A DNA stretch of 56,700 nt from Escherichia coli. Lineage in GTDB: Bacteria > Pseudomonadota > Gammaproteobacteria > Enterobacterales > Enterobacteriaceae. Made by a program: the position numbers and the translations under genes. Shown here in pieces: positions 23,843 to 27,748 of this stretch. Below the pieces are notes generated by a model, which did not search any database, had not been told where the DNA came from, and saw only the letters and a program-made list of their open reading frames with translations. The stretch lies in assembly GCF_003334255.1 (NCBI RefSeq), contig NZ_QOWU01000034.1; one strand, given 5' to 3'. The stretch's first letter is position 1, and each line of letters begins with the position of its first letter.

Positions 23843-23904
23843 AGGGATTTCCTTCCCGCGCATCAATAAAAATGGCGCTGAAAAAATATTCAACGCCATC
23901 GACT

Positions 23905-24020
23905 TTTTATGCCTTTGCGGCATCGGGCAATGCGTGTCGGATGCGGCGTAAACGCCTTATCCGACCTACGGTTCTACCCCTGCGTAGGCCTGATAAGACG
24001 CGCCAGCGTCGCATCAGGCA
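23905..24020. repeat. BIME/REP cluster
   Basis: Tandem inverted REP units (gccggatgcggcgtaaacgccttatccgacctac ... gtaggcctgataagacgcgccagcgtcgcatcaggc) between dedD and cvpA. Confidence 0.8.
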
Positions 24021-24028
24021 AGACCGTA

Positions 24029-24691
24029 TTAATTCGGCGTATAGCCCATTACCACGCCACTTAAGCCAGAAAGTTGCTTCAACTCACCCAGCGAACCTTT
24101 CAGCTTATCTTTCGAGGCATCCGGCCCAACCAGAATACGGGTAATTTTACCCTGCACTGGCGTGGATGGCGACGTATAAACCCGATAACCGGCACCGCGC
24201 AGCTTACCGACAATCTCATTCACTTTATCGGCATTTTTCAGCGCACCCAGTTGCACAACATAGGCTTTACCCGTCGGTGCAGCTTTTTCTTCCACGACCG
24301 GCTTCGGTTCTGGCTTCGGCGCAGGTGGTGCTTCAACCTTTGGTTTAGGCGGCTCCACCGGTTTCGGCTTCGGTGGGGCGACCGGTGCAGGTTCCGGTTC
24401 AAACTCGGTGTTATTGGCTGCAATAGTGGCCGGATCGAGCGACGGTGCTGCGGCATCACCTGCCCGCACCTCTTCCGCTGCGCCTTCCGGCGGCTGCGTC
24501 GGTAACGCCTGGGTGGCGGCTGGCATCATATCAGGCTCATCACGATCGCCCGCTTTCGGCACCAGCGGGATAGCCGCGAACTCATCCTGATAATGTTTTT
24601 TCTGCCCGTCCAGCAGCCCTGGAAGTACAATCACCCCCAGCGCCACCAGCACGATCGTGCCCACTAACCGATTCTGAAACTTACTTGCCAC
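24029..24691 (-). CDS. dedD: Cell division protein DedD (SPOR domain)
   Basis: Start trimmed to GTG at 24689-24691 (220 aa) with GGAG RBS; TM helix, Pro/Lys-rich linker and C-terminal SPOR domain. Confidence 0.88.
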   Translation of the reverse strand: MASKFQNRLVGTIVLVALGVIVLPGLLDGQKKHYQDEFAAIPLVPKAGDRDEPDMMPAATQALPTQPPEGAAEEVRAGDAAAPSLDPATIAANNTEFEPEPAPVAPPKPKPVEPPKPKVEAPPAPKPEPKPVVEEKAAPTGKAYVVQLGALKNADKVNEIVGKLRGAGYRVYTSPSTPVQGKITRILVGPDASKDKLKGSLGELKQLSGLSGVVMGYTPN

Positions 24692-25949
24692 CGCTTCTCC
24701 TCGCGTCAATCACTTCCATGACATGTGCGACCGTGTGGAAAGAACCACACACCAGCACGGTGTCTTCCGCTTTAGCGTCCGCCATTGCGGCATCCCATGC
24801 CTGCGCAACGCTATCAAATGATTTGCCGTTACCCAAATGCTCAAGCAGTTGTTCTGCCGTGGCACCGCGCGGCCCTTCCAGTGGCGCACAATACCAGTCA
24901 TCAACCACGCTTTTCAACCAGGCCAGAGTTCCGGCAATATCTTTATCATGTAGCATACCGATAACCGCCAGCACGCGCCCGTTTTTCGGTAGCGCTTTCA
25001 TACGCCCGGTGAGATATTCCGCCGCATGTGGATTATGCGCGACATCAAAAATAACGCGTGGCGACTCGCTCACAATCTGGAAACGTCCCGGCAAAATTGC
25101 GCTGGCAATCCCGTCGCGAATGGCATTTTCACTGACTTCCAGCCCGCTGGCACGCAGTGCCGCCAGCGCTGTTGCGGCATTCGGTTGCGGGACAAGCGGC
25201 AACGGCAGATTTTCCAGCGTGCCGTGAGCATCGCTAAACGCCCAGTCATGATCGGTGACGGAATAGTTCCACTCAACGCCCCGACGTTGTAACAGTGCAC
25301 CTTTTTCCTGCGCCACATCAGCAATGGTAGAAGGCATTTCCGGCTCACCGACAATTGCCGGTTTTTCGCTGCGGAAGATGCCTGCTTTCTCGCGACCAAT
25401 ACTTTCGCGATCTGGACCCAGCCAGTCGGTATGATCCAGCGCAATACTGGTTACTACCGCGACATCGGCGTCGACAATATTGGTTGCGTCCAGACGACCG
25501 CCCAGCCCTACTTCCAGAATCACCACGTCAAGTTGTGCCTGCTTGAACAGCCACAACGCCGACAGCGTACCGTACTCGAAATAGGTCAGGGAAATATCAC
25601 CGCGTGCCGATTCAATCTCCGCAAAAGAGGCGGTGTGGGCCGATTCCGGCAATTCCTGGCCCTGCACACGTACGCGCTCGGTATAACGCACCAGATGAGG
25701 CGAACTGTAGACGCCCACTTTGTACCCTGCCGCCATCAGAATCGACTCCAGCGTACGGCAGGTGGTGCCTTTGCCATTCGTACCCGCAACGGTAAACACA
25801 AATGGCGCTGGTTTCAGGACGCCAAGACGCGCCGCGACCAGGCTCACGCGCTCAAGGCCGAGATCGATAGTTTTACTGTGCAGGTTTTCCAGATAAGAAA
25901 GCCACGAAGCCAGAGGCGACGCGGCTTGAGGAGTGCGTTTGATAATCAT
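24681..25949 (-). CDS. folC: Dihydrofolate synthase / folylpolyglutamate synthase
   Basis: 422-aa ORF with Mur-ligase P-loop GTNGKGTT; 3' end overlaps the dedD start by 11 nt. Confidence 0.95.
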   Translation of the reverse strand: MIIKRTPQAASPLASWLSYLENLHSKTIDLGLERVSLVAARLGVLKPAPFVFTVAGTNGKGTTCRTLESILMAAGYKVGVYSSPHLVRYTERVRVQGQELPESAHTASFAEIESARGDISLTYFEYGTLSALWLFKQAQLDVVILEVGLGGRLDATNIVDADVAVVTSIALDHTDWLGPDRESIGREKAGIFRSEKPAIVGEPEMPSTIADVAQEKGALLQRRGVEWNYSVTDHDWAFSDAHGTLENLPLPLVPQPNAATALAALRASGLEVSENAIRDGIASAILPGRFQIVSESPRVIFDVAHNPHAAEYLTGRMKALPKNGRVLAVIGMLHDKDIAGTLAWLKSVVDDWYCAPLEGPRGATAEQLLEHLGNGKSFDSVAQAWDAAMADAKAEDTVLVCGSFHTVAHVMEVIDARRSGGK

Positions 25950-25980
25950 GGTATCCGCTGATTCGTTACGGTGAGAATAG

Positions 25981-26010
25981 CAAAAGGGCAGAGCCAGTGG
26001 CCCTGCCCTT
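25981..26010 (-). terminator. Hairpin (terminator/attenuator) between accD and folC
   Basis: Minus strand aagggcagggccactggctctgccctt followed by ttgc, T-run is short; sits 9 nt after the accD stop and about 30 nt before the folC ATG. Confidence 0.6.
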
Positions 26011-26018
26011 ATCAGTTA

Positions 26019-26933
26019 TCAGGCCTCAGGTTCCTGATCCGGTACCGGGGGTACCACTACGCCTTCACGCGGCGCTTCAGGATTCGGCGCTGGCAGATTC
26101 ATCAACTTCGCCAGAATGCTCGCCAGTTTCAGGCGCATTTCCGGACGACGGACGATCATGTCGATCGCGCCTTTCTCGATCAGGAATTCACTGCGCTGGA
26201 ATCCAGGCGGCAGTTTTTCGCGAACGGTCTGTTCGATAACACGCGGACCGGCAAAGCCGATTAACGCTTTCGGTTCAGCGATGTTGAGATCGCCCAGCAT
26301 GGCGAAACTTGCAGAAACACCGCCCATCGTCGGGTCGGTCAGCACGGAGATGTACGGCAAGCCGCGCTCCTGCATTTTTGCCAGTGCCGCAGAGGTTTTC
26401 GCCATCTGCATCAGCGACATCAGTGCTTCCTGCATACGTGCGCCACCAGAGGCGGAGAAGCAGATCAGCGGGCAGTTATCTTCCAGCGCCTGCTCAACGG
26501 CACGCACGAAACGTGCACCCACAACAGACCCCATTGAACCGCCCATAAAGGCGAACTCGAATGCCGCAGCGACAACCGGCATTCCATACAGAGTGCCTTT
26601 CATCACCACCAGCGCATCTTTTTCGCCGGTTTCTTTCTGCGCAGATGCCAGACGGTCTTTATACTTCTTGGAGTCACGAAACTTCAGCACATCTTTCGGC
26701 TCAAGCTCGCTACCCAGCTCCACAAGGCTTCCTTCATCTAACAGGCTATGCAGGCGATTACGCGCTGTCATACGCATGTGATGGTCACACTTCGGACAGA
26801 CCTCAAGATTACGTTCCAGCTCAGCGCGGTATAAAACCTGACCGCAGCTATCACACTTAGTCCACACCCCTTCAGGAATGCTCGCCTTGCGGGTGGGAGT
26901 AATGTTGCTTTTAATTCGTTCAATCCAGCTCAT
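26019..26933 (-). CDS. accD: Acetyl-CoA carboxylase carboxyltransferase beta subunit
   Basis: Start trimmed to ATG 26931-26933 (304 aa, MSWIERIK...); N-terminal C4 zinc ribbon (CDSC...CPKC) and carboxyltransferase domain. Confidence 0.95.
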
Positions 26934-27088: not shown

Positions 27089-27748
27089 TTATTTTGCGGC
27101 GCGTGCCGCAGCGCGTTTGTGACGGATTATTTCGATGACGCCCGGCAAAATAGAAACCACAATAATCCCGACGATCAGCAGCTTAAGGTTATCCTGAACC
27201 ATCGGGATTGTACCGAAGAAATAGCCTGCGTAGGTAAAAAGCAGTACCCACAACAGTGCGCCGATCACGTTATAAGCGGCGAAATGACGGTACGACATGT
27301 GGCCCATTCCCGCAACAAACGGGGCGAACGTTCTGACGATCGGCACAAAACGGGCGAGAATAATCGTTTTGCCGCCATGTTTCTCATAAAACTGATGGGT
27401 TTTGTCGAGATAACTGCGACGGAAAATTTTCGAATTGGGATTACTGAACAACTTTTCACCGAACAACCGCCCGATAGTGTAATTGACCGCGTCACCCACA
27501 ATCGCGGCGATCAGCATCAGCACCACCATCATATGGACGTTGAGATCGTTGGTTTCCAGTGATGCCAACGCTCCGGCAACAAACAGCAATGAATCACCCG
27601 GTAAAAACGGCGTTACCACCAGACCGGTTTCACAGAACAAAATTAAGAACAAAATGGCATAAACCCAGACGCCGTACTCCGCGACCAGCTCTGCCAGATG
27701 CACGTCAATGTGCAGGATAAAATCGATGAGGAAATAAATCAGGTCCAT
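27089..27748 (-). CDS. dedA: DedA-family inner membrane protein
   Basis: 219-aa hydrophobic ORF of the DedA/SNARE-associated family. Confidence 0.92.

Follow-up and report, generated by a model that had tools for sequence, protein, structure and literature searches.

A terminator hairpin and an embedded dedD start in the accD-folC-dedD cluster of Escherichia coli: ordinary, previously described features of a probable step-down architecture

Introduction

Terminators that are partially read through occur within gene clusters, with rpsU-dnaG-rpoD and rplL-rpoB as the classic cases. The accD-folC-dedD cluster of Escherichia coli shares with this type a GC-rich hairpin and a U-tract right after a well-expressed gene, as well as low-abundance downstream genes on the same strand that are predicted here to be at least partly dependent on read-through. 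It differs in that the E. coli U-tract also holds a weak extended -10 element for the downstream gene.

Two further groups of described systems resemble the distal part of the cluster. In secE-nusG and dnaT-dnaC, which are cited beside folC-dedD by Napolitano et al., the Shine-Dalgarno (SD) sequence of the downstream gene likewise lies inside the upstream coding sequence (CDS) and is made of rare AGR arginine codons, and recoding to CGU fails until the strength of the ribosome binding site (RBS) is restored. folC-dedD departs from the common 1- or 4-nt overlaps with its 11-nt overlap and GTG start. In addition, the catalogue of ORF-internal Term-seq 3' ends of Adams et al. 2021 (PMC7815308) holds entries for two ends in folC, one at position +55 and one near its 3' end, of which the former follows a hairpin and a U-rich tract.

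The transcription of the cluster has been described in two ways. A review states that folC and dedD are expressed through read-through of the accD terminator, giving an accD-folC-dedD mRNA (PMC7264889), and RegulonDB, relying on Li & Cronan 1993, has assigned accD and folC to different operons (per PMC2896540). Here the hairpin after accD and the folC/dedD overlap are found to be real but ordinary, and both were already known; each element of the layout has been annotated, reviewed or tested earlier, so that the layout as such matters little.

Results and discussion

The accD-folC-dedD locus

The window analysed, a 56,700-nt stretch of DNA, is 100% identical to E. coli K-12, and the segment of interest carries accD, folC and dedD, all on the minus strand, with gene limits that agree with the RefSeq annotation. 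The accD CDS (26019..26933), encoding the acetyl-CoA carboxyltransferase beta subunit as judged from the RefSeq annotation of the identical K-12 sequence and from its translation, ends in the tandem stops TGA TAA (TGA at 26021-26019). After a spacer of 69 nt, folC (24681..25949, 422 aa) extends from an ATG at 25949 to a TAA at 24683-24681, and dedD (24029..24691, 220 aa) begins at a GTG at 24691 inside folC. Two published transcription start sites (TSSs) of accD, at 27179 and 27200 on the minus strand, lie inside the 3' end of dedA and give 5' UTRs of 246 and 267 nt with 159 and 153 reads, respectively (Kim et al. 2012, supplementary table, PMC3415461); the positions of that study were converted to window coordinates using the folC ATG as anchor. 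At the other end, the unit is bounded by REP-like repeats (23910-24055), which gave sub-threshold matches to the REP-derived Rfam family naRNA4, and by a hairpin at 23900..23871 that is terminator-like in a pattern scan (d-score 9), the whole element (23871..24055, minus strand) preceding the cvpA promoter.

The gene order accD-folC-dedD is kept in 80 genomes of relatives and widely in Proteobacteria. The adjacency of accD and folC is old and widespread, with spacers that are short or missing in other Proteobacteria, and both the hairpin and the folC/dedD overlap are conserved across about 80 Enterobacteriaceae genomes.

The accD terminator

The hairpin between accD and folC, termed T1 (25984..26010, minus strand; GC core 26008..25986), is supported by its fold, its d-score and its conservation. 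It reads AAGGGCAGGGCC-ACT-GGCTCTGCCCTT from 26010 to 25984, followed by TTTTGCTATTCT, and forms a 12-bp stem with eight G-C pairs and a 3-nt loop. The hairpin alone has a folding energy of -21.6 kcal/mol and a z-score of -4.75, none of 200 shuffles being equally stable, and its d-score of 28 is well within the terminator range. The U-rich tail UUUUGCUAUUCU lies directly 3' of the stem (T-tail score 3.58) and is conserved in all relatives; the U-tract TTTTGCTATTCTCA (25972..25985, minus strand) retains 4-7 T in the first eight tail positions in every one of them. T1 begins 8 nt past the accD stop and ends 34 nt ahead of the folC ATG, close to the spacing of about 30 nt given in the first-pass annotation of this DNA.

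The hairpin with its U-tract is present in 82/82 Enterobacteriaceae sequences. A terminator pattern scan over the whole region returned four candidates against 3.6 expected from shuffles, showing no enrichment, and the significance of T1 therefore rests on its energy and conservation. This support is conservation rather than covariation, since the stems of T1 and of the folC hairpin described below are near-invariant among relatives, with compensatory changes in only one or two pairs. In 71/82 sequences T1 begins 5-9 nt past the accD stop, and it has been retained despite insertions that place it 5-206 nt from the accD stop and 26-154 nt from the folC ATG in relatives. The variable distance to both genes indicates a position-independent, terminator-like element with no action on folC translation. 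T1 is thus accD's ordinary intrinsic (Rho-independent) terminator and, as a predicted element of this type, should lower transcription after accD.

In the curated Term-seq list, no 3' end is found near K-12 position 2,432,970, corresponding to T1; since just one peak, the highest, is retained there for any 100 bp, an end at T1 could be masked by a stronger one about 84 nt away. A literature search with the T1 terminator sequence itself returned no papers. The junction had also been described as attenuated, which is apt only if a constitutive step-down is meant; a regulated attenuator, with a sensor such as a leader peptide, an antiterminator structure or a ligand- or protein-binding RNA family, was searched for and none was found. 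No Rfam family matched at E <= 1 except for a chance miRNA match over T1 (E = 0.54), and the only alternative pairing is rare and not conserved.

Step-down transcription into folC and dedD

For folC, Kim et al. 2012 (PMC3415461) mapped a TSS with 11 reads to 25967, a position past T1 and 18 nt ahead of the ATG. The extended -10 motif TGcTATTCT (25982..25974) sits within the T1 U-tract, exactly at -15 to -7 of this start, and the two together define a weak folC promoter (25967..25982, minus strand) that is restricted to E. coli and close relatives: the motif occurs in 3/81 loci and is absent from the other 78. This restriction suggests that read-through probably still matters. A second TSS, assigned to dedD and represented by 31 reads in the same study, lies inside folC at 24944, 253 nt before the GTG of dedD, with a candidate -10 TATGCT (24957..24952) in folC codons 331-333 (24944..24957, minus strand). 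The sequence GGT ATG CTN at this -10 is near-invariant in relatives but encodes conserved residues too. The mapping enriched for 5'-triphosphate ends (TEX), and both starts have low read counts in a single dataset. The first-pass annotation had favoured coupled expression rather than independent promoters and had named a folC start downstream of the hairpin as evidence against it; the published starts at 25967, which is such a start, and 24944 contradict this part of the annotation, weak as both are.

We consider it probable that the cluster has a step-down architecture, in which T1 read-through and weak local starts feed folC-dedD and dedD is translated from an SD inside folC. In this arrangement, accD is transcribed from the strong promoters within dedA, its message ends at T1, 8 nt past the stop codon, and the low-abundance folC and dedD mRNA would come from polymerases that read through T1, which we infer to terminate only partially in vivo. 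In E. coli, the two weak local starts, one with its -10 in the T1 U-tract and the other inside folC, would supply some additional folC-dedD mRNA. folC is translated from its ATG with a weak SD, and dedD from the GTG 11 nt inside folC by means of its strong AGGAG, where ribosomes may either load directly or re-initiate after the folC stop, 8 nt downstream.

Separate transcription units, with an efficient T1, a monocistronic accD and folC-dedD expressed essentially from promoters of their own, would agree with the RegulonDB entry, with the high terminator score of T1 and with the location of the folC TSS downstream of it. We regard this as rather unlikely, given that the folC TSS is represented by so few reads and its -10 by so few loci, yet conservation of the gene order, of T1 and of the short spacer is universal among the relatives, and that the review cited above describes an accD-folC-dedD read-through mRNA. 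Furthermore, the Term-seq 3' end at folC +55 outscores every peak within 100 bp, T1 included, indicating that transcripts run past T1 or begin just after it.

A pure single operon is unlikely. It would have one promoter before accD, T1 as an internal attenuator, no promoters for folC or dedD, and strictly coupled translation of dedD. Read-through as asserted in the review fits such an operon, and so does the gap between T1 and folC, just 34 nt long, in which a sigma-70 consensus scan found no -35/-10 pair. The 3' half of accD shows no significant synonymous constraint indicating an embedded conserved promoter, and the 78/81 relatives without the extended -10 must still transcribe folC, which is essential in E. 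coli. However, the cluster does not have one promoter with no internal starts: TEX-enriched starts are found past T1 and within folC (25967 and 24944), TGcTATTCT is placed precisely for the former, and the strong SD of dedD speaks against obligatory coupling. Other TSS resources gave no additional starts, the SMRT-Cappable-seq supplements having no entries for accD, folC or dedD, the Cappable-seq supplements no coordinates that match the locus, and the Klebsiella TSS table of Kim et al. (PMC3415461) none of the three genes among the rows listed. A "folC promoter" reported in PMC6079169 was set aside as an unmapped 150-bp upstream fragment used in gel shifts.

That T1 acts after transcription, either by controlling folC translation from its place near the RBS or by serving only to stabilise or process the mRNA, is highly improbable. 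In E. coli T1 is only 34 nt away from folC, and the accD stop region UGAUAA pairs long-range with UUAUCA of folC codons 2-3 in the minimum-energy fold of the junction. This pairing was rejected as rare (2% of the ensemble only) and not conserved, codons 2-3 showing no conservation outside Escherichia. Moreover, the folC SD and ATG lie outside the hairpin, the distance from T1 to the ATG ranges from 26 to 154 nt across relatives, and a hairpin that only stabilised the mRNA could do without the conserved U-tract, which is typical of terminators.

The dedD start within folC

The folC/dedD overlap, GTGGCAAGTAA (24681..24691, minus strand), runs from the dedD GTG to the folC TAA and measures exactly 11 nt, as the first-pass annotation had reported. 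Neither its length nor the GTG start differs in any of the relatives holding both genes (80/80), the GTG itself is present in 82/82 sequences, and nowhere in folC are synonymous sites more constrained than in the overlap region (z to -2.47). The annotation was also right in placing a GGAG-type RBS in the last folC codons: the dedD SD, AGGAG (24697..24701, minus strand), is formed by codons 417-418 (AGG AGA) and lies 5 nt before the GTG. GGAG with this 5-nt spacing is found in 78/81 relatives and is kept while the C-terminal residues of FolC vary (Arg/Gly, Ser/Thr/Ile, Lys/Glu).

The pairing energy of the dedD SD with the anti-SD is -8.9 kcal/mol (about -8 to -9), and the medians for accD, folC and dedD are -4.1, -2.5 and -8.1 kcal/mol, respectively, the folC value, from 82 sequences, reflecting the weak SD ahead of its ATG. 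With such a strong SD, dedD may initiate apart from folC translation; translational coupling between the two genes is possible from the arrangement of their signals. Napolitano et al. found that recoding of folC AGR codons to CGU failed until RBS strength was restored, demonstrating that the SD in codons 417-418 is needed for dedD. An alternative dedD start at TTG 24709, taken from the ORF list, was rejected because an in-frame TGA precedes it and it is not conserved in most relatives; in 57/81 loci there is no in-frame alternative start upstream of the GTG.

Three other candidate signals in this part of folC were considered. A Term-seq 3' end at 24715 (minus strand; 3' end 2431708, M63; Adams et al. 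2021) lies 24 nt before the dedD start codon and is probably a processing site or an exonuclease stop, since it has no U-tract; the fold around it is not significant (z -0.66). A terminator-like hairpin at 24763..24749 was rejected on its z-score of -0.06, and a promoter-like TTGAAA-18-TATTGT (24917..24888), which follows the published dedD TSS in the direction of transcription and is free of synonymous constraint, was taken as a chance occurrence.

The practical lesson concerns genome engineering, in that the signals of folC and dedD are intertwined: the U-tract of a terminator also provides a promoter -10, rare Arg codons form an SD, 11 nt are read in two frames, and a conserved hairpin lies early in folC. 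Synonymous recoding or deletions can therefore have unforeseen consequences, as Napolitano et al. saw. E. coli cannot do without FolC, and in the strain of those authors DedD proved essential as well.

A conserved hairpin early in folC

A second conserved hairpin with a U-tract, T2, lies in folC codons 8-19, where Term-seq has placed a 3' end. It occupies 25890..25927 on the minus strand (folC nt 23-51, AAGCCGCG..CGTGGCTT; stem 25927..25899; tail TCTTATCTG), as identified from its fold, its conservation and the Term-seq end. The folding energy is -17 with a z-score of -4.42, and a consensus structure is obtained across 70 distinct sequences; the core arms are intact in 80/81 loci and the tail is identical in 71/81. 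Synonymous sites are constrained with z from -1.3 to -1.6 (5% threshold -1.26), and the d-score is borderline, at 0.1-7. The Term-seq end, at 2432888 in M63 medium (Adams et al. 2021, PMC7815308), corresponds to window position 25895 or folC +55 and falls 4 nt past the extended stem, in the U-rich tail UUUCUUAUCU. Thus, T2 may be an intragenic intrinsic terminator. folC is unmentioned in the main text of that paper, and the synonymous-site conservation of T2 across Enterobacteriaceae is, as far as we found, a new observation.

It could be speculated, though we think it doubtful, that the tandem conserved terminators T1 and T2, the latter confined to the initial 55 nt of folC, set folC-dedD expression in Enterobacteriaceae, with T2 as a translation-sensitive attenuator and an additional effect of the accD ribosome on T1. 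If so, a ribosome terminating on accD could partly block T1, given the short distance from the stop, linking read-through to accD translation, and a polymerase without a folC-translating ribosome close behind would stop at +55. The proximity of T2 to a weak RBS would then tie the level of folC-dedD mRNA to the efficiency of folC initiation, and from the E. coli promoter starting at 25967, T2 would release a 73-nt RNA. Should T2 prove to terminate transcription within the gene, it would offer a compact case of expression control in synonymous sites.

Conserved junctions of the accD-folC-dedD locus

The features at the accD-folC-dedD junctions were confirmed and are clearly non-random, and they are already known as part of the biology of the best-studied bacterium. 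Over 24600-26100 the sequence matches E. coli K-12 MG1655 with 100% identity and is single-copy in all of the complete E. coli genomes searched (5,426/5,426), and the RefSeq gene order on the minus strand is accD, folC and dedD, then cvpA and purF. The accD-folC neighbourhood is common across Proteobacteria, often in the form trpFBA-accD-folC, and the synteny of folC-dedD reaches as far as Pseudomonas. The comparison set comprised 80 loci, one genome per species, all from Enterobacteriaceae, with FolC 80-99% identical to that of E. coli. One locus, L072 (CACSKA010000009.1), is a contig labelled Chryseobacterium sp. 18061 and carries a typical enterobacterial accD-folC-dedD locus, whose FolC shares 81% identity with the E. 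coli protein; another locus in the set has exactly the same accD-folC spacer, and L072 agrees in its features with L074, a 'Citrobacter sp. 18056' assembly of the same series. The L072 assembly is probably mislabelled or contaminated.

The accD terminator

The accD stop TGA (26021-26019, minus strand) is directly followed by a second stop, TAA, and the folC ATG lies at 25949 (minus strand). Between them, a hairpin termed T1 (AAGGGCAGGGCC-ACT-GGCTCTGCCCTT, 26010..25984, minus strand), with the tail TTTTGCTATTCT 3' of it, starts 8 nt past the accD stop and leaves 34 nt to the ATG, in agreement with the first-pass annotation, which had placed a hairpin about 30 nt upstream of folC. T1 alone folds with -21.6 kcal/mol (z = -4.75; 0 of 200 shuffles as stable), and its d'Aubenton-Carafa discriminant of 28 is well within the terminator range. 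No Rfam family matched T1, and a crude terminator pattern scan of the whole region was not enriched over shuffles, so that the case for T1 rests on energy and conservation. Hairpin and U-tract were found in 82/82 sequences (-16.6 to -25.9 kcal/mol), and the spacing varies from 5 to 206 nt to the accD stop and from 26 to 154 nt to the folC ATG because insertions shift T1 relative to its neighbours. Retention of T1 and its U-tract wherever they are located argues for terminator behaviour rather than for a structural effect on the ribosome-binding site of folC, and T1 is the intrinsic terminator of accD.

In several Citrobacter and one Enterobacter (L007, L008, L009, L011, L014, L017, L018, L022, L023 and L054; accD-folC spacer at roughly positions 2300-2440 of each locus), ~60-200 nt are inserted downstream of the accD stop and ahead of T1 (about 125 nt in several Citrobacter), with an additional insertion nested in that of L008; the inserted sequence resembles, and may be, an ERIC (enterobacterial repetitive intergenic consensus) element. 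Unrelated insertions of 60-120 nt between T1 and folC are present in Lelliottia, Raoultella, Klebsiella-like and Enterobacter loci (L043, L056, L063, L067, L069 and L080).

Transcription starts and routes to folC

Transcription starts mapped by 5'-triphosphate enrichment (Kim et al. 2012, PMC3415461) were converted to window coordinates with the folC ATG as anchor. The two accD starts, 27179 and 27200, lie inside dedA (159 and 153 reads; 5' UTRs of 246 and 267 nt, respectively), while folC has a start at 25967 (11 reads; 5' UTR of 18 nt) and dedD one at 24944, inside folC (31 reads; 5' UTR of 253 nt). Weak independent starts for folC and dedD thus exist in E. coli, that of folC downstream of the hairpin, where the first-pass annotation had itself said that a start would refute it. 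The first-pass proposal of coupled, attenuated expression rather than independent promoters is partly right, in its terminator step-down and its dedD Shine-Dalgarno (SD) sequence embedded in folC, and is partly contradicted by these weak starts.

The motif TGcTATTCT (25982..25974, minus strand) is an extended -10 element that covers exactly positions -15 to -7 relative to the published start of folC, 7 nt further on, and it is formed by the distal U-tract of T1, the terminator tail and the promoter sharing the same bases. It was found in only 3/81 loci, E. coli and its closest relatives, the other loci having TTTTCT or a similar tract without the -11 A, suggesting that read-through is most likely the family's conserved route to folC expression. 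According to an operon-prediction paper, RegulonDB assigned accD and folC to different operons on the basis of a single article, Li & Cronan 1993, and its authors argue that the two probably form one operon (PMC2896540).

For dedD, the start at 24944 and a candidate -10 element upstream of it, TATGCT (24952-24957, minus strand), lie inside folC codons 331-335. GTT ATC GGT ATG CTN is almost invariant in relatives, but the residues that it encodes in FolC are conserved as well, and the scan of synonymous sites gave no signal here.

A second hairpin in early folC

Codons 8-19 of folC form its second most constrained synonymous stretch (z -1.3 to -1.6), in which TGG CTT TCT TAT CTG GAA is almost invariant across 74 distinct sequences. 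Here a second hairpin, T2, was found by folding and consensus structure (25927..25899, minus strand), consisting of the arms AAGCCRCG and CGTGGCTT and, between them, a 13-nt loop that itself contains a small inner stem, with the U-rich tail UCUUAUCU 3' of the stem; hairpin and tail span 25890-25927, or folC nt 23-60. T2 (-17 kcal/mol, z -4.42) is also recovered as the consensus fold when 70 distinct sequences are compared, one of its pairs showing a compensatory change; its core arms are intact in 80/81 loci and its tail is identical in 71/81. A Term-seq 3' end (Adams et al. 2021; K-12 2432888, window 25895), seen in M63 glucose only, falls 4 nt past the stem. The curated list holds no T1 peak because only the strongest peak per 100 bp was retained, and by this rule the end at folC +55 outscored any T1 peak in the M63 sample. 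We hypothesise that T2 may act as a terminator within the gene, or as a pause site, further lowering folC-dedD transcription. Its terminator discriminant is only borderline (0.1-7), and trimming by exonucleases back to a stable hairpin would leave an identical 3' end. No discussion of T2 was found in the accessible literature, and it is the sole element here that might repay experiment.

The dedD start within folC

The dedD GTG (24691, minus strand) precedes the folC stop TAA (24683-24681, minus strand), giving an overlap of exactly 11 nt, and its SD sequence AGGAG (24701..24697, minus strand) falls in folC codons 417-418, with 5 nt between it and the GTG; every element described in the first-pass annotation is present. 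This arrangement is already annotated and experimentally tested: in an AGR-codon recoding study, the change of folC AGG-AGA to CGU-CGU failed, with a predicted 99% cut in dedD RBS strength, and RBS-preserving codons rescued it (bioRxiv 10.1101/069385). The overlap with its GTG start is identical in 80/80 loci having folC and dedD, and GGAG lies exactly 5 nt 5' of the GTG in 78/81. Among relatives, the amino acids that the SD bases encode at the C-terminus of FolC differ (Arg/Gly, Ser/Thr/Ile/Ala, Lys/Glu) while GGAG is kept, so that it is the SD, and not the protein, that is under selection. The last 14 codons also show the strongest synonymous-site constraint of folC (window z to -2.47 versus a gene-wide 5% threshold of -1.26). 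A TTG upstream of the GTG, chosen by the mechanical ORF call, was rejected as the start, not being conserved in relatives; the dedD start codon is GTG at all loci.

The overlap permits translational coupling of folC and dedD and is no proof of it. Median SD:anti-SD energies across loci are -4.1 (accD), -2.5 (folC) and -8.1 kcal/mol (dedD), and with so strong an SD dedD could initiate without help from folC-translating ribosomes. A second Term-seq 3' end of Adams et al. 2021 (24715, minus strand) lies 24 nt 5' of the dedD GTG. It lacks a U-tract, the local fold is not significant, and it looks like a processing product; the position may be an RNA processing site just ahead of the dedD ribosome-binding region.

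Downstream of dedD, REP-like repeats (23910-24055) matched Rfam naRNA4 below threshold on both strands (E ~2e-4), and a terminator-like hairpin (23900..23871) follows them, before the cvpA promoter. At the other end of the unit, codons 1-10 of accD (26904-26933, minus strand) have the lowest synonymous-site variation of that gene (z -1.61, right at the 5% threshold of -1.62), which could reflect a translation-initiation constraint or binding by the carboxyltransferase, an enzyme reported to bind its own mRNA.
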